IMG/VR virus record: IMGVR_UViG_3300020187_001966 | DNA: 64,000 nucleotides | Reading direction: 5' to 3' (one strand) | Source: a virus | Lineage: Duplodnaviria > Caudoviricetes | Shown here: piece by piece, positions 1 to 63,882 of the stretch | How the letters are laid out: each line of letters opens with the position of its first letter | Position numbering within the stretch: the stretch's first letter is position 1 | Program-made: the position numbers and the translations under genes | The notes under the pieces: generated by a model | Database searches by the model: none | Told to the model about the DNA's origin: nothing | The model's input: the letters and a program-made list of their open reading frames with translations, nothing else

Positions 1-66
1 ACATTTTTAACAGCACAAGAAGCAGTTGACTACGGTCTAGCTGATCGTGTAATTGAACAAAGATAA
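1..66 (+). CDS. clpP: C-terminal end of ClpP protease (partial, runs off window)
   Basis: Frame 1 reads TFLTAQEAVDYGLADRVIEQR*, matching the ClpP C-terminal F(M/L)xAxEAxxYGLxDxV motif; not in ORF track. Confidence 0.8.
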   Translation, partial: TFLTAQEAVDYGLADRVIEQR

Positions 67-74
67 GTAAGTAT

Positions 75-129
75 AGTGGACTTCACAGGATCGCCCCACT
101 CTAAATACTCCGTCCTTGTAATATAGGAG
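75..129 (+). promoter_or_regulatory. Candidate structured 5' leader (H-type pseudoknot / anti-SD) upstream of queD
   Basis: AGTGG(75-79)/CCACT(96-100) stem; loop AGGAT(87-91) complementary to GTCCT(112-116), which is also complementary to SD AGGA(125-128). Confidence 0.45.
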
Positions 130-135
130 AAGAAT

Positions 136-2097: not shown

Positions 2098-3042
2098 ATG
2101 AAAATAATTACAGGAAGTAGCAATACTGCTTTTGCTAAAGCGGTTGCTGATCATTGCTTCACTGAGTTAGTTCCAGCAGAACTAAATCGGTTTAGTGATG
2201 GAGAAATATGTGTAGAAGTACATGAGAACATTCGTGGTGCGGATGTTTTTTTAGTGAATAGCACTTGTACACCAGTTAACGATAGTTTAATGGAAATGCT
2301 GATAATGATTGATACTGCCAAGCGTAGTAGTGCTAGTCGTATTACGGCAGTTATCCCTTACTTTGGGTACGCACGCCAAGATCGTAAAAGTGCTTCAAGA
2401 ACACCCATTACTGCCAAACTAGTTGCTGACTTACTAACTACAGCAGGTGCAGATCGTGTACTCACAATGGATTTACACGCAGGACAGATTCAAGGCTTTT
2501 TTGATATTCCAGTGGACGATTTAACAAGCCGTGTAGTGTTTGCTAAAGACATTAAAAAACAATTTTACAAAGACGGCAGTGACATCAATACTGTAGAGAC
2601 AGTATTTGTTTCACCAGACGCAGGCGGTGCTGTAAGAGCTCGTAAGTTTGCTGATATGTTCCATGGCGATATTGCTATTGTAGACAAACGTAGACCTCGA
2701 GCAGGTGTTAGTGAAGTAATGGCACTGATTGGTGATGTTAAAGGTAAACATGCTATCCTAGTAGATGATATTGTTGATAGTGGAGGCACACTATGTAAAG
2801 CCGCAGAAGCTATCTTGGATGCTGGCGCACTAAGTGTTAGAGCATACATTACACATGGTGTACTAAGCAATGGTGCTAGTAAAAAGATTGAAGCTAGTAA
2901 ACTAGAAGAATTAGTTATCAGTGATAGTATTCCTTATGATGGCAAAAGTACAAAAGTTAGACAAGTAAGTTTAGCACCATTATTTGGCGAAGCAATGCGC
3001 CGTATTACAAATGAAGAAAGTGTGAGTAGTTTATTCCAATGA
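2098..3042 (+). CDS. prs: Ribose-phosphate pyrophosphokinase
   Basis: [44 protein letters not shown]; SD before ATG 2098. Confidence 0.97.
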
Positions 3043-25484: not shown

Positions 25485-27719
25485 ATGTCACAAAACGACC
25501 CAAAAATAGAAGCACTAGTAGAACGCCTATTTCAATTGACTCGAGGGTACAAACATGAATATGTTACACTAGAACATCTACTAGCTATATTGCTGGAAAC
25601 AGAAGAAGTACAGGATATTTTCTATGATATTGACAAAGATCCAAAGGTAACTAGAGATCTAGTTATCACTTATCTAGAAACTGAAGTTGATAGTATTGAC
25701 AAGGAAGAGTTTCAACCACAAAAGACAGTTATGCTAGAGCGTGTGTTTAATCGTGCGTTTACACAAGCAATGTTTAATGGTAGACAGAAACTTGACCCAC
25801 GTGACTTGCTTATTAGTATCTTAACAGAAGAGCAATCGCCATCTGTTGTATTGCTAAATCAACTTGACATTACTAGAGAAGACTTAATCTCATATCTAAC
25901 TAATGAAGCAACTGAAGAAGCAGAAGCTAATACTCGTGATAAACCATTAAAGCAAGAACGTATACTAGAAAAGTTTTGTGACAATCTAAATATGTTAGCT
26001 AATAATGGTGAAATTGATCCTATGATTGGTCGAGAAACTGAGCTTGAGCAACTTGTACAAACTATTGCTAGACGTAAAAAGAACAACGTTATCCTAGTAG
26101 GCGAAAGTGGTGTTGGTAAAACTGCTATTGCTGAAGGACTAGCACATCTAATTAATGAAGATCGTGTTCCGGATGTTATTAAAGACAATACTATCTATAG
26201 TTTGGATATTGGTTCACTACTAGCAGGTACTAAGTTTAGAGGTGACTTTGAAGAACGTCTTAAAGAAGTTTTGGATGTACTAGAGCGCCGTGACGATGCT
26301 ATCTTGTTTATTGATGAGATTCATATGATTATGGGAGCAGGCAGTGCTGGACAAGGAGCAATGGACGTTGCTAACTTACTAAAGCCAGCATTACAAAAAG
26401 GCAAACTACGTTGTATTGGTAGTACAACATATGACGAGTATCGTGAAACCTTTGAAAAAGACAAAGCACTTAATCGTCGTTTTTATAAAGTAGATATTCC
26501 AGAGCCCACAGTGGGGGATGCTAAACGTATTGTACGTGCTGCTATTCCAGCATATGAATTATATCATGAACTAGCATACGACCAAAAGGCATTGGATGGT
26601 GCTGTTGACTTAACACACCAATACTGGCACAACCGTCAGTTACCAGATAAAGCATTTGATGCTCTGGATGCGGCGGCGGCAAGACAAGCATTACTACCAA
26701 TAGAAGATCGTAAGAGTGTACTAGAGCTTGATGACATCCGTTATGAGGTTGCTAAACTAACACGCATTCCAGTAGATCAATTAGTGCTAACAAAAGACAG
26801 TGAGTACAAAACTGAAAAGCCAGTTGATATTGAACGTATTGTTACATCAAAAGTATTTGGACAAGACGAAGCTATTACAAGACTAGCAGATAGTATCTAC
26901 ATTGCTAAAGCAGGACTTAAAGATCCAAACAAACCAGTTGGCAGTTACTTGTTTACAGGACCAACAGGTGTAGGTAAAACAGAAACAGCAAAACAACTTA
27001 GTGATGCTATGAGTATGCCACTTGTACGTTTTGATATGAGTGAATACCAAGAGCGTCATACAGTTGCTAAACTAATTGGTGCGCCTCCAGGATACGTAGG
27101 TTATGGCGAAGGTGGACAAGGCAGTGGGTTGCTGGTAAACAAACTAGAAGAAAATCCAAACTGTATCTTGTTGCTAGATGAGATTGAAAAGGCACACCCA
27201 GATGTAAGTAATGTATTGCTACAACTTATGGACAATGGTATGATTACAAATAGTGAAGGCAAAAGTGTTAGCGCACGTAATGCGATTGTTATCTTAACCA
27301 GTAACTTAGGTGCTAGAGATGCTGAACGTAATACAATTGGGTTTGGTGATAACGATAATACAACAGCAAGTAATGAAGCAGTTAAACGTTTCTTTAGTCC
27401 AGAGTTTCGTAACCGCTTAGACGCAGTTGTACAGTTTAATAAACTAGATAAGACATTAATGAAACAAGTTACTAATAAGTTTATTAAAGAGTTGCGTGAT
27501 ATGTTAACACCACGTGGTGTGGCAATGTCGCATAGTACACAAGTTCTTGATTGGTTAACTGATAATGGATTTACTCCTAGTATGGGAGCAAGACCAATGG
27601 CACGTTTAATTAATGAAAAGATTAAAAAGCCACTTGCTAAAACATTACTATTTGGTAACGACATTACTAAAGTACACCTAGAGATTGTTGATGATGAGAT
27701 TGTGATTCAAACAAGTTAA
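25485..27719 (+). CDS. clpA: ATP-dependent Clp protease ATP-binding subunit ClpA
   Basis: Clp N domain, two AAA+ modules (GESGVGKT, GPTGVGKT), no ClpB coiled-coil M domain, IGF loop NTIGFG. Confidence 0.92.
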   Translation: MSQNDPKIEALVERLFQLTRGYKHEYVTLEHLLAILLETEEVQDIFYDIDKDPKVTRDLVITYLETEVDSIDKEEFQPQKTVMLERVFNRAFTQAMFNGRQKLDPRDLLISILTEEQSPSVVLLNQLDITREDLISYLTNEATEEAEANTRDKPLKQERILEKFCDNLNMLANNGEIDPMIGRETELEQLVQTIARRKKNNVILVGESGVGKTAIAEGLAHLINEDRVPDVIKDNTIYSLDIGSLLAGTKFRGDFEERLKEVLDVLERRDDAILFIDEIHMIMGAGSAGQGAMDVANLLKPALQKGKLRCIGSTTYDEYRETFEKDKALNRRFYKVDIPEPTVGDAKRIVRAAIPAYELYHELAYDQKALDGAVDLTHQYWHNRQLPDKAFDALDAAAARQALLPIEDRKSVLELDDIRYEVAKLTRIPVDQLVLTKDSEYKTEKPVDIERIVTSKVFGQDEAITRLADSIYIAKAGLKDPNKPVGSYLFTGPTGVGKTETAKQLSDAMSMPLVRFDMSEYQERHTVAKLIGAPPGYVGYGEGGQGSGLLVNKLEENPNCILLLDEIEKAHPDVSNVLLQLMDNGMITNSEGKSVSARNAIVILTSNLGARDAERNTIGFGDNDNTTASNEAVKRFFSPEFRNRLDAVVQFNKLDKTLMKQVTNKFIKELRDMLTPRGVAMSHSTQVLDWLTDNGFTPSMGARPMARLINEKIKKPLAKTLLFGNDITKVHLEIVDDEIVIQTS

Positions 27720-27924: not shown

Positions 27925-28331
27925 GTACAACAAGTATTAATATATTACCAAGCCAGGCAGTTTTAAGCTACACTGGTGATAAAGTCAAAGCAGATGGTTA
28001 TTATGGCCAAACTGATGGGCTACACACAATCTCGGCAAGAGTAACAAACTTTGTAGGCAGGATTTATTTGGAGGGCAGTTTAGCAACTGACCCTACCAAT
28101 ACTGATTGGTTTCCAATTTACTTAACTAGTGGACAAAGCTACAGACAGTATCCAGTTTTAGCTGCACCAAGTGGAGTAAACAACCTAGGAGATACAACTA
28201 CAGAAGCATGGACGTTCCGTTCAAATTTACTTTGGATTAGAGCCCGTGTTGATCGTAGTTATATTGATCCAGCCCCAACTTATGACGTTGCACTACATGG
28301 TACAGTGGATAAGATTCTCCTAAACCTATAA
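27921..28331 (+). CDS. Putative virion structural protein
   Basis: DGYYGQTDGLHT, late cluster. Confidence 0.6.
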   Translation: MSTTSINILPSQAVLSYTGDKVKADGYYGQTDGLHTISARVTNFVGRIYLEGSLATDPTNTDWFPIYLTSGQSYRQYPVLAAPSGVNNLGDTTTEAWTFRSNLLWIRARVDRSYIDPAPTYDVALHGTVDKILLNL

Positions 28332-28361
28332 ATAGTATATAATACAATTAACAGTTTAGGA
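28318..28361 (+). promoter_or_regulatory. Late promoter TATAAATA inside an RBS-covering 8-bp stem
   Basis: TCCTAAAC/GTTTAGGA. Confidence 0.6.
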
Positions 28362-28368
28362 ACGATCA

Positions 28369-29298
28369 ATGCCAATATATGCACAAAGCTCAACATTACG
28401 ATCATTATTGATTCCTTTAGTAGACATCGATCAAACAACGATTGCAAATGAAGACCTCCTGCAATACAACTCTACTACGGGAAAGTTTGAAAACAAACCG
28501 CTATCCAGCGGTGGCGCCGCCGTCATTACTACAGCAAGTAATGTTGGCACAGGTGCTACGGTATTCAAACAAAAGACTCTTCAAAATTTAGAATTTAAAT
28601 CAATTACAGCGGGTGCTGGTATCACATTAGTGGCTAATGCCAACGATGTAGAAATTAGCTCTACGGGGGTGCTTGATACTGCCAGTAATTTAGGCGCAGG
28701 TCAAGAAGTATTCAGCAGCAAGGTTGCTGGAGACTTTCAGTTTAGAACGATAAACGAAGGTATAGGTAATATTAACTTTACTGTATCAACTGTTGCTAAT
28801 GAAATAAGATTTGTTAACACTGCTGAAATTAATACTGCCAGTAACAGAGGCGGCGGCGCAACATTATTTGCTGCGAAAACCGGAGCTGATTTAGAGTTTA
28901 AAAGTATTATAGCTGGTAATAACATAACAGTCACAAGTGATGCTAATGAAGTTACTATTAACAGTCAAGCACAGATACAAGATTCATCTGCTTACCAAAT
29001 TACAGCAGCATTTGACGGTAATGGTAACTTACAATCAATTAGTGATTTGCCAGCAGGATGGACAAGCGCAGTTGTTGGTAACAAAGCAACTATAACACAC
29101 ACTGAAAACAAGATGGTTAAAAACATAACTTATTGGGGCAAAGATGCCACACTGGGATGGCAGCTACGTTTTCCAAACGCTGGTTTCCAAGCTACTGTGC
29201 CAGTTGGTTCAGAGAATAGTAAGTTTATTGTTGACCTTAACGCTAGTGTGGCAGGAGCCGATACGAGTAGTACAGCAAAAATAAATGTGATCTTCTAA
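28369..29298 (+). CDS. Fibre/baseplate-like protein with three ~48-aa repeats
   Basis: TASNxGxG..F..K....(L/F)(E/Q)F(K/R)(S/T)I repeated three times. Confidence 0.65.
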   Translation: MPIYAQSSTLRSLLIPLVDIDQTTIANEDLLQYNSTTGKFENKPLSSGGAAVITTASNVGTGATVFKQKTLQNLEFKSITAGAGITLVANANDVEISSTGVLDTASNLGAGQEVFSSKVAGDFQFRTINEGIGNINFTVSTVANEIRFVNTAEINTASNRGGGATLFAAKTGADLEFKSIIAGNNITVTSDANEVTINSQAQIQDSSAYQITAAFDGNGNLQSISDLPAGWTSAVVGNKATITHTENKMVKNITYWGKDATLGWQLRFPNAGFQATVPVGSENSKFIVDLNASVAGADTSSTAKINVIF

Positions 29299-41983: not shown

Positions 41984-43597
41984 ATGAAGTTTACTGATTT
42001 TACTGAAAAAGTTATTGAATCTATTGTTAACGAAGAAGCAGCTATTAAACTTGATTTTGATCAAGTGAGGATAAGAATACCTGCTAACGATAATACTAGA
42101 CCAACTACTGGAGAAGTTATTGATTTAGATTCTCGTCGAGCTGCAGCAAAAGATGCTCTTAGTAAAATGTCAGAAGCAGACAGAAAATCTGCAAACGAAT
42201 TTATTAAAAAGAACAAAACTCTACTACAAAGACTATCGTCTGTAGGAGCCAGATCAGCAGCAAGACATGGTGTAGCAACAATTTCAAGTGTAGCATCAGG
42301 CCCACTTGCGCCAGCAGTAGCAGCAGTATTAAATGTAGCAATGCTAGGTTGGGATTTAGCTGATGCCGGCGTTGAAATATGGGACTGGGCAAAATCAAAC
42401 AATGCTAAAGATATTAAACAAGGTAATGCTGGTCGAGCCTATGGCAATGATTTAGCAATGGTAGTTCCAAGATCACCTAGACAGAATTCAAGAGACGATG
42501 ATGCGTATGAAATAAAACATTTAACTCAACAATCACAATTTGGTGCTGCTGGTATGAGAGATCAAGCTGCTCGATTACTATCACAACGTCAAGCTGAATA
42601 CCGCAGAGATCAACAAGAATGGGACAAAGAGTTTGGAAAAACACACTTAGATAACGGCACAGCAAATCCAGATGCAGGTTATCAAGATAAAATAATGAGA
42701 ATTGCGCAAGCAGGTAGAGATGCTCAAAATAAAGCAAGTGATAACGAGCTTATTAAAAAAGCACAACAAAAACCTCAAGATATTCCTCCTGTTGTTAATT
42801 TTACAAATATTCCACCATTGATCACACCATCGTTTACCCCAGGCACAATTAACAACCCAACTGGAGAATTCACTCCCCCTGAATTTGACCCTAATGCTCC
42901 TGAGTTCCCTGAGTTACCTAAAAGGGGTAAACCATTTAAAGCACCAGAAACACCTATAGAGCCAGCTCCAAAAGGCCCTAAAGTTATAACTAAATCACCA
43001 ACCCAACCAAAAAGAACCGACAAGGATCTGGAAAATCCAATAGTACCTGGAGAATTCACTCCCCCTGAATTTGACCCTAATGCTCCTGAGTTCCCTGATT
43101 TACCTAAAAGGGATGATCCGTTTAAAGCACCAAAGCCACCTGTAGAGCCAACTCCAAAAGGCCCTAAAGTTGTAACTACCCCACCTAAACAACCAAAAAG
43201 AACCGACAAGGATCTGGAAAATCCAATAGTACCTGGAGAATTCACTCCCCCTGCATTTGACCCTAATGCTCCTGAGTTCCCTGAGTTACCTAAAAGGGGT
43301 AAACCATTTACAGAACCAGAGTTGCCAAAAGAATTACCAAAAGAATTACCAAAAGAATTACCAAAAAAGTACACCCCTCCTGCTATAACCCCTAATCCAC
43401 ATGCCGGGATAGTTATTGGGAAAAAAGGTAAAACTGATACTAAGACAAAAACCAAGGAAAAACCTAAAGGCAAGACGACAAGTAGACGTGTTGGTGGTGA
43501 TGCTGGCAGTGGTGATCGCATTAAGTCAACGGCTAATCAAATGAAGTTCAGCCCTATAAATATTAGAGACCCACTAAACTTAAAGAGATATGGATAA
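41984..43597 (+). CDS. Pro-rich repetitive putative virion protein
   Basis: MKFTDFTE N-terminus; 62-aa tandem repeats. Confidence 0.65.
   Translation: MKFTDFTEKVIESIVNEEAAIKLDFDQVRIRIPANDNTRPTTGEVIDLDSRRAAAKDALSKMSEADRKSANEFIKKNKTLLQRLSSVGARSAARHGVATISSVASGPLAPAVAAVLNVAMLGWDLADAGVEIWDWAKSNNAKDIKQGNAGRAYGNDLAMVVPRSPRQNSRDDDAYEIKHLTQQSQFGAAGMRDQAARLLSQRQAEYRRDQQEWDKEFGKTHLDNGTANPDAGYQDKIMRIAQAGRDAQNKASDNELIKKAQQKPQDIPPVVNFTNIPPLITPSFTPGTINNPTGEFTPPEFDPNAPEFPELPKRGKPFKAPETPIEPAPKGPKVITKSPTQPKRTDKDLENPIVPGEFTPPEFDPNAPEFPDLPKRDDPFKAPKPPVEPTPKGPKVVTTPPKQPKRTDKDLENPIVPGEFTPPAFDPNAPEFPELPKRGKPFTEPELPKELPKELPKELPKKYTPPAITPNPHAGIVIGKKGKTDTKTKTKEKPKGKTTSRRVGGDAGSGDRIKSTANQMKFSPINIRDPLNLKRYG
42861..43366 (+). 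repeat. 186-bp tandem repeat (~2.5 copies) followed by 12-bp ELPK repeats
   Basis: CTGGAGAATTCACTCCCCCT at 42861, 43047, 43233; GAATTACCAAAA units around 43319-43366. Confidence 0.9.
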
Positions 43598-58926: not shown

Positions 58927-59095
58927 GAAGATCCGTGTAATTGAAGACTCAACAGTAGCACCTGATGAAATATCTGACGCTGCGTTCCGAACACAAGTAA
59001 TGGAACTTGCGAAAGCTGTAGATTGGAAACTTTGGGAGTTGTTGCAAACTATTCAACGCCTTGAGAAGAAAATCGACGTTTCAGATAATGACTAA
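58919..59095 (+). CDS. Hypothetical protein (58 aa, not in track)
   Basis: AGGAG SD; AVDWKLWE. Confidence 0.6.
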   Translation: MVKKIRVIEDSTVAPDEISDAAFRTQVMELAKAVDWKLWELLQTIQRLEKKIDVSDND

Positions 59096-59528
59096 CCGTG
59101 AAGGTTATTATGATTATATGCTTAGGCGTATGAGAGAAGAGGATACTAAGATGAAGAAGTCAAGCACAAATATTTGGGTAACATTCCGCAAGGAAGGTTT
59201 ACACAAGTACCCAGCAGCACTAGATGACCCTAAGTTGGCAACTGGTGATGAACAAGATGTAAGTTTCCTAGGATACATACATCGACATATTTTCCACTTT
59301 AAGGTAGAACTTGAAGTATTCCATGACGATCGAGACGTTGAATTTATCCAATTCAAGAGATGGTTGGAAAGCCTCTACGCAGACGGAACTCTGCAACTCG
59401 ATTTTAAATCCTGTGAGATGATTTGTGATGATCTTGCAGATACAATTAACACAAAATATCCCAACCGCAAAATGACAATCACTATTAGTGAGGATGGGGA
59501 AAATGGAGCAACGTGTAGCTATGCATAG
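59088..59528 (+). CDS. Atypical QueD/PTPS-like T-fold protein (start 59088 or 59151)
   Basis: HRHIFHF His cluster, DRDVEF, KSCEMI; sits in the tgt-folE cluster. Confidence 0.55.
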   Translation: MTNREGYYDYMLRRMREEDTKMKKSSTNIWVTFRKEGLHKYPAALDDPKLATGDEQDVSFLGYIHRHIFHFKVELEVFHDDRDVEFIQFKRWLESLYADGTLQLDFKSCEMICDDLADTINTKYPNRKMTITISEDGENGATCSYA

Positions 59529-59841
59529 TTTAGGTACTAATATCCGTGAACTTCGCCAAGGGCGAGTAAGCGTTAACGACATCAAATGGGATCTTATTAA
59601 GATTATCGAACCATATGATGGTATTCTTGCAACCAATGACGGAAGTGAACGAACTGTTCGCCGTCTATTCACTACATACCTAAGTGATCTTAGATACGTG
59701 GGTCTAATTAATGACTTTAACATCTTTAGTAATATCCGTGATAACGCTATTACATATGATGTAAGCGTAAAAATGTCACAAGATCGCAGTGATAAGAAAC
59801 TAAAGATTCATGTAGGTGTGTATCAGAAACGAGCGGCATAG
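59503..59841 (+). CDS. Hypothetical protein
   Basis: In operon; start uncertain. Confidence 0.55.
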   Translation: MEQRVAMHSLGTNIRELRQGRVSVNDIKWDLIKIIEPYDGILATNDGSERTVRRLFTTYLSDLRYVGLINDFNIFSNIRDNAITYDVSVKMSQDRSDKKLKIHVGVYQKRAA

Positions 59842-59842
59842 T

Positions 59843-61357
59843 ATGACAGCAACTCGTGTAAACTTAACAGAACGTAACAAAGACTACGCAGTATTTTTGC
59901 CTAGTATTAGTACGTTCTATAATAACTTTATCGCAAAGCAACGTGCTTCTGGCAATCATATTTTGCCAGAACGTATGCCAGCAGGTTTTGAAACTGGCAT
60001 GGAAGGCATGAACTTTCTTAATGAGAAGGATGCTTACTATAGTTATAAGTGGGGGTTATACTCCGCAGGTCATGCTCAACTTAATCTAGATAAAGCTAAT
60101 GAATCAGACGCAATGGTACAAGGCCGTGATCGTGACAAAACGTTTATGCTTTGTGACAGTGGCGGCTTTCAGATTATTAAAGGTGTTATCCAGTGTGATT
60201 GGGATAACTTTAAAACTGATGACAGTTTACGTCAGAAGATCTTAAACTGGTTGGAACACACAGGTGATTACAGTATGATCCTGGATATTCCAACACTAGC
60301 GGCGGATCCTACATTTACAGAACGAACAGGTATTTCATCATTCAACGAATGTTTGGACTACACTGACTTTAATGTAAACTGGTTTAAAAAGAACCGCAAA
60401 TACCAAACAAAGTATCTTAATGTTATGCAAGGGCGCAACTGGGCTGAAGCAGAACACTGGTATGAGAAAATGAAACATCATGATCTCGAAGGCTTTGCGT
60501 TTGGTGGTAGTGCTAAGAACGACATCAACATTGTACTACGTACACTTATTAAGATGCGTGATGATCAGCAACTAGAGCGTGGCAAACGTGATGTGCTACA
60601 CTACTTGGGCATTGGTAGACTAGAATGGGCAGCGGCTTATACAGCAATCCAACGTAGTTTACGTGAGCATGTTAACGAAGATATTAATGTTATGTTTGAC
60701 TGTGCGAGTCCTTTCTTGGCAACAGCAAATGGTACAATGTATACACAGCACGTTCATAAGTCAGATCGCTTTGGTTATGTTATGGATAAAGCAATGGACA
60801 GTAAAGCACTAAGTGGAAGTAAACAAGCATTTCCGTTTGGTAGTCCAATTGGCGAACGTCTTAACTTGGGTGACATTTGTCACTACTCGCCTGGTATGCT
60901 TAATAAAGTAGGCAAAGAAGGCAAAACAAGTTGGGATAGTTTTAGTTATATGCTACTAATGTCACACAATGTATACAGTCATATTGAAAGTGTACAACGT
61001 GCTAATGCGTTAACTGACATGGTAAACGCAACAGTAAGTACAGACTACAGAAAATGGCGTAAACTTAAACCTAACAGTAAAGATGAAGTGTTTAGTCCAT
61101 ATGTTCCACGTAACATTGTGTACATGACACAGTTTATTGATCAACTGTTCCGCAGTGAGAAACCTATGACAATGCTAGACGAAGCGGCAGGTATGTTAGC
61201 TAACTTTAGTGGACAAAAACTACAAACATCAAGTGCTGGTAGTTTTAGTAACTTGTTTGAAGTTGAAGGTGCTGTTTCAGAAGAATCCAATGAGATGTCA
61301 GCTGAACAAGAAGCTGACGCAATTGACTTTTTAGAATCAATGGAGAGTACTGTATGA
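59843..61357 (+). CDS. TGT/DpdA-like 7-deazaguanine transglycosylase
   Basis: DSGGFQI, ILDIP, GFAFGG, HYLGIG, FDCASP, SHN line up with the TGT barrel motifs. Confidence 0.75.
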   Translation: MTATRVNLTERNKDYAVFLPSISTFYNNFIAKQRASGNHILPERMPAGFETGMEGMNFLNEKDAYYSYKWGLYSAGHAQLNLDKANESDAMVQGRDRDKTFMLCDSGGFQIIKGVIQCDWDNFKTDDSLRQKILNWLEHTGDYSMILDIPTLAADPTFTERTGISSFNECLDYTDFNVNWFKKNRKYQTKYLNVMQGRNWAEAEHWYEKMKHHDLEGFAFGGSAKNDINIVLRTLIKMRDDQQLERGKRDVLHYLGIGRLEWAAAYTAIQRSLREHVNEDINVMFDCASPFLATANGTMYTQHVHKSDRFGYVMDKAMDSKALSGSKQAFPFGSPIGERLNLGDICHYSPGMLNKVGKEGKTSWDSFSYMLLMSHNVYSHIESVQRANALTDMVNATVSTDYRKWRKLKPNSKDEVFSPYVPRNIVYMTQFIDQLFRSEKPMTMLDEAAGMLANFSGQKLQTSSAGSFSNLFEVEGAVSEESNEMSAEQEADAIDFLESMESTV

Positions 61358-62109
61358 AAATTGTAGTTGTATCTGGTGGATTTGATCCATTACATAGTGG
61401 ACATATTGCGTACTTTAAGTCAGCTAGAAAACTTGGAGACAAACTTGTAGTTGCTGTGAATTCAGATGATTGGCTTACCCGTAAAAAGGGTAGGCCATTT
61501 ATGCCTTTTCATGAACGTTGTAATATTATTGAAGAGCTAGGGTGTGTTGATCAAGTTATTGGATTTAATGACGAAGACGACACAGCATGTAACGCAATAT
61601 TTCAAATGTTATCTACTAAAACAAGAAGTGATACTGTAATCTTTGCCAATGGTGGAGATCGCACTTCAGATAATATTCCAGAAATGATTTATGACGAAGT
61701 ACAATTTGAATTTGGAGTTGGTGGAGAAGACAAAAAGAATAGTAGTAGTTGGATACTTAAAGAGTGGAGTCAGCCTACAACACAACGTGCTTGGGGTAGT
61801 TACACAGTGTTACATAATGGTCCAGGTTGGGCAGTTAAAGAGCTAGCATTTGGTACTGAAACTCCACTAAGTGATCAACGACACTTTATTCGTAGTGAAC
61901 ACTGGCATGTAGTTGAAGGCGATATTCGTATGGATTTAGAGTTTGACAATGGCGACAAATCAAGTATACTATATACATCAGGACAAAGTATCGATATTCC
62001 TGTACACACTTGGCACAAAGCAACAAACGTCGGCACCACAACAGCAAAAGTAATTGAAGTGTGGATGGGCGATGAACTTAGTGAAGATGACATTGAAAGA
62101 AGAGATTAA
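61354..62109 (+). CDS. Cytidylyltransferase fused to MPI-type cupin
   Basis: GGFDPLHSGH, ANGGDR, KNSSS; RAWGSY, SDQRH..RSEHW. Confidence 0.85.
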   Translation: MKIVVVSGGFDPLHSGHIAYFKSARKLGDKLVVAVNSDDWLTRKKGRPFMPFHERCNIIEELGCVDQVIGFNDEDDTACNAIFQMLSTKTRSDTVIFANGGDRTSDNIPEMIYDEVQFEFGVGGEDKKNSSSWILKEWSQPTTQRAWGSYTVLHNGPGWAVKELAFGTETPLSDQRHFIRSEHWHVVEGDIRMDLEFDNGDKSSILYTSGQSIDIPVHTWHKATNVGTTTAKVIEVWMGDELSEDDIERRD

Positions 62110-63170
62110 TGAAAACAATTTATATTATACCGATAGAACCGATTGACCAACGTTATTCTAAGCAATGGTATGATAACATTCCACTTATACTACAAAAAGA
62201 GATAGCTGAACGTAATTTAGATTATCATGTAGTAACAATTGATGGCGAGGACTTTAAACCTGATGTGAGAACAGAAGGTGCTTTCCTTGACTTTGGTGCT
62301 ACTAATGTATATAAGTCAACACAGACTACAGCGGTAAGTAAACTGTTTAGTAACGGTAAAGTTAAGGCAGGCGATAAGTTTCTGATAACTGATGCTTGGA
62401 ACTTTATCATTACACCTATCAAATACATGAGTGACTTACTGGACATTCCAGTAGAGATACATAGTATTTGGCATGCTGGAGCATATGATCCAAGTGACAT
62501 ACTTGGGTATAAGATGCAACCAGACTGGCCCAATCATGTTGAGAAGAGCTGGTATCATAGTAGTGATTATAATTACTATGCTACAAACTTTCACAAGGAC
62601 ATGTTTTTACGTAACTTAAATATTCCACAAGGTAATTATAATAAAGCTATACGCAGTGGGCAACCACACGAGCTTATTGTTGATAACTTAACACAATATC
62701 AAACTACACCTAAAACAAATACAGTTATGTGGCCACATCGCTATAATGATGACAAGCAACCAGAAATTGCTGAAGACTTGTCTAACGACTTTAGAATGGT
62801 CATTACACAAAAAATGAACCTTGACAAAGCTGAATATTATGCTAAGATGGGAGGGTGTAAGGCAATTTTTAGTTGTGCGTTACATGAAAACCTAGGCATT
62901 AGTGTAATGGAAGCAGTACTAACAGGTGCTATTCCAATCGTGCCGGATCGCTGTAGTTACAGCGAAATGTATCTGCCAGAGTTTAAGTATCCAAGTGAAT
63001 GGACTAAAGACTATGTAGCATACGTGGAAAATAGACCACAGCTAACAGCCTTTATTCAAGAGAAACTAGACAACTTTGATCAGTATACAAACAAACTAGA
63101 AGAACAACGTAACATTCTTATTAAAGATTATCTAAATAGTAGTGTTATGATAGACAACATACTACAATAA
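62109..63170 (+). CDS. GT-B glycosyltransferase (GT4-like)
   Basis: WPHR..DKQP, HENLGISVMEA, PIVPDRCSY.E. Confidence 0.8.
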   Translation: MKTIYIIPIEPIDQRYSKQWYDNIPLILQKEIAERNLDYHVVTIDGEDFKPDVRTEGAFLDFGATNVYKSTQTTAVSKLFSNGKVKAGDKFLITDAWNFIITPIKYMSDLLDIPVEIHSIWHAGAYDPSDILGYKMQPDWPNHVEKSWYHSSDYNYYATNFHKDMFLRNLNIPQGNYNKAIRSGQPHELIVDNLTQYQTTPKTNTVMWPHRYNDDKQPEIAEDLSNDFRMVITQKMNLDKAEYYAKMGGCKAIFSCALHENLGISVMEAVLTGAIPIVPDRCSYSEMYLPEFKYPSEWTKDYVAYVENRPQLTAFIQEKLDNFDQYTNKLEEQRNILIKDYLNSSVMIDNILQ

Positions 63171-63189
63171 ACGAAAAGGAACATAGTAT

Positions 63190-63882
63190 ATGAACAAGAC
63201 TTCCGATTTAGTAATTAACAGACTAAAAAAAGACGACAAACGTTATTGGGCAGGCGATAACATTAGTGACTACATCAAAGACGGTGAAAAGGATCTATTG
63301 ATTGACGAAGCTGCTGTAGCGTTTGAAAGTGTATTAGATACACTTGTAATTGATCGTCATAATGATCCCAATTCAAAAGGTACAGCAAAGCGTTTAGCTA
63401 AAATGTATTATAATGAAATAATGGCGGGTCGTTACGAACCTATGCCACCAGCAACAGCCTTTCCAAACGATTCAGCGGATCGATATGAAGGAATGTTGGT
63501 AGTACGTAGTGAGCTTAAAAGTATGTGTTCACACCATCATCAGCCAGTGGCAGGTGTAGCGTACATAGGTATTATTGCTGCAGACACACTTATTGGTTTA
63601 AGCAAGTACACACGTATTGCTCAATGGTGTGCTAGACGTGGAACACTACAAGAAGAACTAGCTACTGATATTGCTAGGGAAATCATGTCAGCAACTGGTA
63701 GTACAGACGTTGGTGTCTATATCCAAGCAACACATGGTTGTTGTGAGAATAGAGGAATAGGCGCACACAGTAGTTTAACACAAACAACTGTACTTAAAGG
63801 TAGCTTCCATAATGACCAAGGAACTAAAAAAGAGTTCATGGACAATATTAAACTACAGCAATCATTTGCTCAAGGCAAATAA
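63190..63882 (+). CDS. folE: GTP cyclohydrolase I
   Basis: SMCSHHHQP, GLSKYTRI, QEEL, ATHGC...RG. Confidence 0.95.
   Translation: MNKTSDLVINRLKKDDKRYWAGDNISDYIKDGEKDLLIDEAAVAFESVLDTLVIDRHNDPNSKGTAKRLAKMYYNEIMAGRYEPMPPATAFPNDSADRYEGMLVVRSELKSMCSHHHQPVAGVAYIGIIAADTLIGLSKYTRIAQWCARRGTLQEELATDIAREIMSATGSTDVGVYIQATHGCCENRGIGAHSSLTQTTVLKGSFHNDQGTKKEFMDNIKLQQSFAQGK

Follow-up and report, generated by a model that had tools for sequence, protein, structure and literature searches.

The DNA stretch IMGVR_UViG_3300020187_001966, which comes from a marine giant phage and is analyzed here over its whole length of 64,000 nt (hereafter, the window, on which all leader positions are numbered), encodes at positions 75-119 what comparative sequence analysis identifies as an RNA pseudoknot of the H type, located in the 5' leader of a queD-like mRNA. 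It is close to certain that this element is a functional, queD-specific structured RNA, and it belongs to a family shown by the database searches described below to be large, uncatalogued, and present almost only in uncultured, mostly large phages. The element looks like a new, phage-only riboswitch that is related in shape to the class I preQ1 (preQ1-I) riboswitch. General characteristics of riboswitches were found in it, namely a covarying leader structure before a metabolic gene and conserved unpaired bases.

The leader begins behind an upstream open reading frame (ORF; 1-66, stop codon at 64-66, plus strand), which was judged by eye to encode the C-terminus of a ClpP-like protein. Inside the 3' end of this ORF lies a weak candidate sigma-70-type promoter on the plus strand, as read from the sequence (TTGACT at 26-31, a 16-nt spacer, and TGTAAT at 48-53); no flag for it appeared in the output of the scan tool. 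All the following elements are also on the plus strand. The 5' strand of P1 (AGUGG, 75-79) is assigned by covariation to the 3' strand at 96-100 (CCACU). Between the two strands are located L1 (ACUUC, 80-84), which starts with (A/U)CU and varies in length in the family; the 5' strand of P2 (85-93), which in the register supported by family covariation consists of A85, C86, A87, G88, G89, A90, a bulged or mismatched U91, C92, and G93; and the two-base junction N-C (94-95), whose invariant C95 adjoins the P1 3' strand on its 5' side. L3 (CUAAAUACUC, 101-110; family consensus N-UAAA-N-A-Y-UC) then leads to the 3' strand of P2 (111-119), that is, C111, G112, U113, C114, C115, U116, a bulged U117, G118, and U119. 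The Shine-Dalgarno (SD) sequence AGGAG (125-129) is found 5 nt past the end of P2, and the QueD-like gene (PTPS family, CxxxHGY variant) occupies 136-585, with matches to PF01242 (E 6e-14) and to the PHROG 'QueD-like' (E 4.5e-40). No terminator is present near the motif. The initial annotation had listed AGTGG (75-79), CCACT (96-100), AGGAT (87-91), GTCCT (112-116), CTCC (108-111), TCCT (113-116), the SD AGGAG (125-129), and an ATG at 136, and all of these strings and positions were verified.

When 95 unique leaders were parsed, a single architecture emerged: P1, L1 starting with (A/U)CU, the P2 5' strand ending at an invariant U-C-R, the junction N-C, the P1 3' strand, and L3 with the sequence N-UAAA-N-A-Y-U-C, followed by Y-G-C and then the P2 3' strand. 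P1 has a length of 5 bp, or of 4 bp in short leaders designated type B, and L3 has a length of 10 nt. P2 comprises 8-11 bp and includes a hypervariable outer part, a U/C mismatch, an invariant C-G pair, and a covarying R-Y pair. The A at the start of the loop, which had been pointed out in the window, is common in the family: among 102 unique cores, L1 begins with ACU in 71 and with UCU in 17, and the U at the third position is almost always present. In 71 distinct cores, 13 of the 36 positions are invariant and most of these are unpaired; they include U91, C92, C95, U102, A103-A105, A107, U109, and C110, and position 93 is G or A.

Folding of the window sequence alone gave a nested minimum free energy of -10.8 kcal/mol versus -14.0±2.7 kcal/mol for shuffled sequences (z = +1.2), which is not better than chance. 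Comparison among relatives was informative for both helices. In an unfitted MAFFT alignment, 85.2% of P1 cells were paired versus 74.5±1.8% after shuffling, and the P1 covariation score was 0.185 versus 0.090±0.018, a value matched by none of 500 shuffles; the result on the covariance model (CM) alignment was similar. The P1 pair types over all loci were AGAGG/CCUCU (49), AGUGG/CCACU (36), and AGACG/CGUCU (5), together with rarer types such as AGUAG/CUACU, AGCGG/CCGCU, and others. P2 was evaluated with 71 distinct 36-nt cores in a gapless MAFFT alignment that was fitted to no structure. In this set, 82.6% of P2 cells were paired versus 56.0±1.4% in shuffles, and the covariation score was 0.729 versus 0.231±0.019, with 0 of 500 shuffles reaching either value; in slid registers, only 20-47% of cells were paired. 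The two central P2 pairs were each kept in 68 of the 71 sequences through six pair types, and the inner pair (93-111) was A-U in 42 cores, G-C in 29, and unpaired in none. Over all cores, this inner R-Y pair was A-U in 63, G-C in 38, and G-U in 1, and about 46 different 4-bp P2 sequences were seen. An alignment-free swap test gave -4.23 kcal/mol for cognate loop and tail partners versus -2.39±0.46 kcal/mol for swapped partners (p ~1e-4).

Covariation among homologous leaders was the comparison that had been proposed for the pseudoknot, and the motif passed it decisively in both P1 and P2. The P1 helix AGTGG/CCACT was correctly placed, with covariation beyond that of shuffles. P2 had been drawn as AGGAT/GTCCT, of which the pairs 87-116, 88-115, 89-114, and 90-113 stand, and the U91-G112 wobble is replaced by C92-G112 and G93-C111. 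As drawn, P2 was also too short, since family covariation extends both inward (92-112 and 93-111) and outward (86-118 and 85-119). In the best reading of the window, P2 thus has three segments that are separated by the single bulges U117 and U91: an outer one (A85-U119 and C86-G118), a middle one (A87-U116, G88-C115, G89-C114, and A90-U113), and an inner one (C92-G112 and G93-C111). A slipped register with G88-U116 and A87-U117 is possible in the subtype to which the window belongs. In the relatives L041 and L044, the outer P2 pairs are preserved by a C-G to U-A change.

The distribution of the motif was analyzed both from the gene and from the RNA. A QueD-based search of IMG/VR provided 80 loci with QueD 77-94% identical. 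A covariance model built from P1 only (R1) gave one strong match per locus, always directly before queD, in 59 of 81 sources, and no second copy was found in the 64-kb window or within about 6 kb around each relative. At the 22 of 80 close loci that have no motif, queD is fused to the upstream gene or is located directly behind a promoter. A gene-blind scan of IMG/VR, for which the pattern was derived from the conserved core without reference to queD, yielded at least 119 stretches, including at least 111 true instances additional to the 59. Among the matches listed, all 110 true instances with readable downstream sequence precede a QueD homolog that is 33-94% identical to that of the window, and none of the 8 matches without P1 precede queD. 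In a subset of 80 gene-blind loci, 73 match R1, and the QueD homolog is the first downstream ORF in each of these 73; one of the 7 loci missed by R1 (L114) is a true instance before queD. The other 39 gene-blind loci consist of 36 true instances before queD, 1 at a contig end, and 2 chance matches. Genes located 3' of queD differ among loci (ClpP, UvdE, KDO8P synthase, PMM, and 2OG oxygenase), and no gene other than queD is consistently associated with the motif. One complete genome has the motif at the head of the series queD-queE-PRT-x-folE.

Outside this collection, the motif is rare. When a stricter pattern was applied to 185,579 prokaryotic species, each represented by one genome, 7 matches resulted; 3 of these were chance, and the 4 true ones, which all precede queD, lie on contigs from three metagenome-assembled genomes. 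Blastn detected no motif in GenBank phages, the covariance model found none in the 8 GenBank phages with the nearest QueDs, and the model likewise found none before queD in Cellulophaga phage phi19:2. The window itself has no close DNA relative among 50,697 GenBank phage records; the family B DNA polymerase that it encodes shares 44-48% identity with its counterparts in Rak2/Atu_ph07-like jumbo phages, and its DNA was found in marine metagenomes of 13 studies. Contigs assembled from RNA libraries cover queD and, in one relative, the leader, and they are uninformative on the 5' end or on transcription. No description of a queD-linked phage motif was found in Rfam 15 or in the searchable literature, for which coverage is incomplete.

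The gene behind the motif is a divergent one. The QueD of the window scores 36 bits against an NCBIfam QueD cut-off of 89 bits, and it has CxxxHGY in place of CxxxHGH, the canonical QueD signature (PMC10516641), so that one of the two signature zinc-binding histidines is a tyrosine. CxxxHGY was present in all seven motif-linked QueDs that were inspected (the window, L089, L142, L144, L098, L152, and L129). Five large carrier genomes (251-382 kb, 71-100% complete) were searched for other pathway genes. Each encodes a QueE-like protein and, within about 2 kb of its gene, a Gpt-like phosphoribosyltransferase (PRT), and FolE was confirmed in both of the large carriers that were examined closely. 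The five genomes gave no TGT-family match, no classical DpdA, and no QueC above the cut-off; in one of them, a 217-aa PP-loop protein showed a weak QueC-like match in its N-terminal stretch only. DpdA3 was not found by the searches used, for which it is too distant and which would miss it. The scores of the QueD-like and QueE-like enzymes fall far short of the NCBIfam cut-offs, and hence, the product of the pathway is not certain. Because the carriers have no QueC over the cut-off, they probably do not synthesize preQ0/preQ1 on their own. The queD step would be the first committed deazaguanine step, a placement that rests on the divergent QueD-like and QueE-like enzymes.

Near the far end of the window, on the plus strand, a DpdL-like QueD paralog (59061-59528; E 1e-11 versus phi19:2 gp040, which carries LxxxHRHxF) is followed downstream by a sugar nucleotidyltransferase/mannose-6-P isomerase gene (61354-62109), a glycosyltransferase gene (62109-63170), and FolE (63190-63882). 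The region 59061-63882 reads as a QueC-less 7-deazaguanine cluster interspersed with sugar genes. In phages of the phiST type, a QueC-less pathway replaces guanine by 7-deazaguanine, and the pathway of Cellulophaga phages phiST and phi19:2 consists of FolE, QueD, QueE, DpdL, and DpdA3 (PMC10516641). Similarly to phiST and phi19:2, the window has QueD-like, FolE, and DpdL-like genes, and its relatives have QueE-like genes and no QueC over the cut-off; unlike in the window, queD of phi19:2 is without the leader motif. In phi19:2, a phage with 7-deazaguanine in its DNA, the annotated QueD (gp036; L224, 5095-5724) starts about 50-60 codons before the QueD-similar region and has no leader motif.

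Several other neighbors of queD may be mentioned. On the plus strand of the window, an iron-sulfur block lies directly 3' of queD (FeS_assembly_P at 757-1104, a 4Fe-4S ferredoxin at 1429-1764, and an IscA-like protein at 1670-2083), and it is followed by a PRPP synthase gene (2098-3042, plus strand); these genes could plausibly assist a radical-SAM QueE as well as a phosphoribosyltransferase step. In L210 (G003:286500-292500) and L211 (G005:87500-91500), the QueE-like gene is within about 2 kb of the Gpt-like PRT gene with FolE nearby, a neighborhood that hints at a base-to-nucleotide step. Pathways of the tubercidin/toyocamycin type have such a step. A ClpA/ClpB-like ATPase with two AAA domains is encoded at 25485-27719 (plus strand), and ClpP directly follows queD in the relative L001.

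Class I preQ1 riboswitches (RF00522), whose types I-III are exemplified by those of B. subtilis queC, T. tengcongensis, and E. coli yhhQ, are the closest known counterpart in shape. All three types of preQ1-I form a compact H-type pseudoknot with a P1 of 5-6 bp, an A-rich L3 that runs along the P1 minor groove, a conserved L3 adenine, a conserved L1 uridine, and a conserved L2 cytidine that reads the Watson-Crick face of the ligand, and sequestration of the SD takes place within P2 or beside it (PMC10622847). The phage motif shares with preQ1-I the H-type topology, the 5-bp P1, the location in the leader of a gene of the queuosine/deazaguanine pathway, a conserved C located 5' of the P1 3' strand (here C95, invariant in 71 sequences), and an A-rich start of L3 (here an invariant UAAA). 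It differs in that P2 has 8-11 bp with a U/C mismatch, compared with the small P2 of the preQ1-I aptamers of about 30-34 nt; L3 has 10 nt with an additional invariant A-Y-U-C tract; and L1 begins with A in most members. Furthermore, P2 does not include the SD, the wiring is suggestive of an ON switch instead of an OFF switch, and the motif occurs in phages and before queD only. With regard to L3, UAAA and one further A are invariant, and the loop ends in an invariant pyrimidine tract that is absent from the description of preQ1-I. A cmscan against Rfam, which had been suggested at the outset, gave no match (the window at gathering thresholds; 1-400, 66-140, and 15 other loci at E <= 10), as expected from the departure from the preQ1-I consensus. 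RF00522 reached at best 17.3 bits on the five carrier genomes, never at the motif, against a gathering threshold of 39 bits. With the shape shared and no RF00522 score, the motif is preQ1-I-like, yet fails membership; since no Rfam family scores it, the analogy between the binding pockets is one of position and topology only. The preQ1-II and preQ1-III riboswitches (RF01054 and RF02680) are likewise pseudoknotted sensors of 7-deazaguanines, and the all-family Rfam scans gave no match to them here. They have larger, differently organized folds.

The candidate riboswitch interpretation of the initial annotation is supported, with ligand binding as a putative part of it. The element likely senses a small molecule, whether in the form proposed here or as an ordinary preQ1-I member. 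Our specific reading, to which we assign a fair though far from full degree of belief, is that of a metabolite riboswitch with a preQ1-I-like pocket, a deazaguanine ligand, and control through freeing of the SD. The pocket would be formed at the P1/P2 junction, where the invariant junction C would read the Watson-Crick face of a guanine-faced ligand, and the L3 adenines would line the minor groove of P1. The most likely ligand would be a 7-deazaguanine of the phage pathway (CDG, 7-deazaguanine, or preQ0): the QueC-less pathway context makes guanine-faced 7-deazapurines likely ligands, and these fit the invariant C. Pterins share the guanine-type face and may be regarded as candidates as well, albeit less likely ones. 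When the pseudoknot is open, the tract CUCCG at the L3/P2 border and the P2 3' strand would pair with the SD; ligand-stabilized folding would free the SD and turn translation ON, which is the weakest step of the scheme. That QueD diverges to about one-third identity and 13 RNA positions stay invariant is more easily explained by an unchanging small ligand. Against this reading, the length and G+C content of P2 are sufficient for ligand-free folding, the SD is outside the aptamer at a distance from P2 that varies (-2 to 27 nt), and ON logic is unusual for a biosynthetic gene if the ligand is the end product.

Modeling of the leaders addressed this control step. Upstream of the motif, a sigma-70-like pair (TTGACA/TATAAT-like) is found in 60 of 91 unique leaders, with the -10 box mostly ending 5-17 nt before P1, and downstream of it the SD is located -2 to 27 nt after P2. 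In the nested fold of the window, CUCC (108-111) pairs with GGAG (126-129), and across the family the usual partner of the SD in such folds is the invariant pyrimidine tract where L3 meets P2. The proposal that the two folds are mutually exclusive was borne out, given that both CTCC (108-111) and TCCT (113-116), which are located inside L3/P2, can be paired with the SD by complementarity. When the aptamer was sequestered in the model, the probability that the SD is unpaired rose from 0.32 to 0.69 in the window, and SD accessibility gained more than 0.2 in 59 of 91 leaders. The modeled accessibility suggests an ON switch. No co-adaptation between the P2 3' strand and the ribosome-binding region was detected (cognate -5.11 versus permuted -5.07±0.18, p = 0.40); the anti-SD pairing may therefore reflect a general complementarity of pyrimidines and purines, and the ON or OFF direction remains inferential. 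Long leaders designated type C (for example, L144, L156, and L155) have additional conserved blocks after P2. In their subgroups, AUCAAACUUGCUAC co-occurs with GGAGACUAGAG-AUG and AUCAAACUUACUC with GGAGGCAAGAG-AUG, and the L3 tract CUCUGC has its complement in a purine run beside the start codon. These blocks may constitute a further level of the expression platform.

Other explanations of the motif were weighed against the riboswitch reading. The pseudoknot might be a constitutive, non-sensing structural element that shields the 5' end of the mRNA or keeps the pyrimidine tract off the SD, which would make for constantly efficient translation of queD. The motif is at the predicted transcript 5' end in many loci, a P2 of 8-11 bp could fold unaided, the switching platform is without covariation support, and 22 of 80 close queD loci do without the motif, all of which would fit such a role; a generic stabilizer, however, needs no 13 invariant, mostly unpaired bases, and would not be expected to be restricted to a single gene family without a second copy in the window or in about 6 kb around relatives. 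We consider a purely structural role unlikely. A similarly low probability is given to a protein-bound translational operator, through which QueD would regulate its own synthesis or a phage translational repressor would act. Autoregulation accounts as well as metabolite sensing does for the exclusive association with queD in widely different phages and gene neighborhoods, a protein could contact the invariant loop bases, P2 has sufficient length to be stable when ligand-free, and the phage is T4-related by its DNA polymerase. The leader pseudoknot of T4 gene 32 is an autoregulatory nucleation site for a single-stranded-nucleic-acid-binding protein, and, like the motif, it is an H-type pseudoknot in a 5' leader with an A/U-rich stretch before the ribosome-binding site. 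Unlike the gene 32 product, QueD is an enzyme without known RNA binding, and we know of no RNA-binding member of the T-fold group. The conserved C and UAAA occupy the places of ligand contacts in preQ1-I, and the 13 RNA positions stay invariant despite the divergence of QueD to about one-third identity, both of which argue against an operator. Furthermore, pterins or purines are the ligands described for T-fold enzymes such as QueD (PMC10516641).

That the motif is an ordinary preQ1-I member, missed by the Rfam model RF00522, binding preQ1 or preQ0, and turning translation OFF, appears somewhat more improbable still. Membership would agree with the shared topology and P1 length, with the C that precedes the P1 3' strand, with the A-rich start of L3, and with the linkage to a que-type gene. 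However, even with the limit relaxed to E <= 10 per genome, RF00522 is silent at the motif; the 8-11-bp P2, the 10-nt L3 with extra invariant bases, and the SD outside P2 depart from the class; and carriers without QueC over the cut-off probably have no preQ0/preQ1 of their own. Chance pairing, or a T4-type late promoter at TAAATA, is very improbable. A T4-type late promoter is TATAAATA about 6-8 nt before the transcription start. It might be said in favor of these possibilities that the single-sequence fold is no better than that of shuffles and that some relatives read TATAAATA across the P1/L3 border. Chance, however, is excluded by the covariation in both helices, and the window reads TCTAAATA, not TATAAATA, which occurs in only 8 of 79 unique relatives; window-wide, TATAAATA is as frequent as expected by chance and CTAAATA is below chance. 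The resemblance of CTAAATA to the late promoter, which had been raised as a caveat, thus does not explain the conservation, because a promoter cannot yield compensatory changes in two helices, and a late promoter at the motif was rejected. Elsewhere in the window, TATAAATA is found at 28327-28334 and 43555-43562 (plus strand), 35-40 nt ahead of ORFs that start at 28369 and 43601; the two sites are possible T4-type late promoters, though the window count is that of chance.

The definition of riboswitch classes has relied almost wholly on cellular genomes. The riboswitch reading can be taken one step further, in a form that we regard as tentative and rather doubtful: the motif would be the first virus-confined riboswitch class, preQ1-I-shaped and yet distinct, which senses phage-made CDG or 7-deazaguanine and turns the first pathway enzyme ON, thereby timing the replacement of guanine in the DNA. 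To our knowledge, there is no natural sensor for a 7-deazaguanine other than preQ1. The aptamer may read such a non-preQ1 7-deazaguanine, and the pathway behind it rewrites guanine in phage DNA. At about 50 nt, the RNA also represents a natural experiment on the flexibility of the preQ1-I fold, and it may provide access to an anti-restriction pathway of DNA modification, the chemistry of which is still open (PMC10516641), or a biosensor for that pathway. If the riboswitch reading is true, a class of more than 100 distinct members that is essentially phage-only would mean that viruses evolve metabolite sensors of their own.
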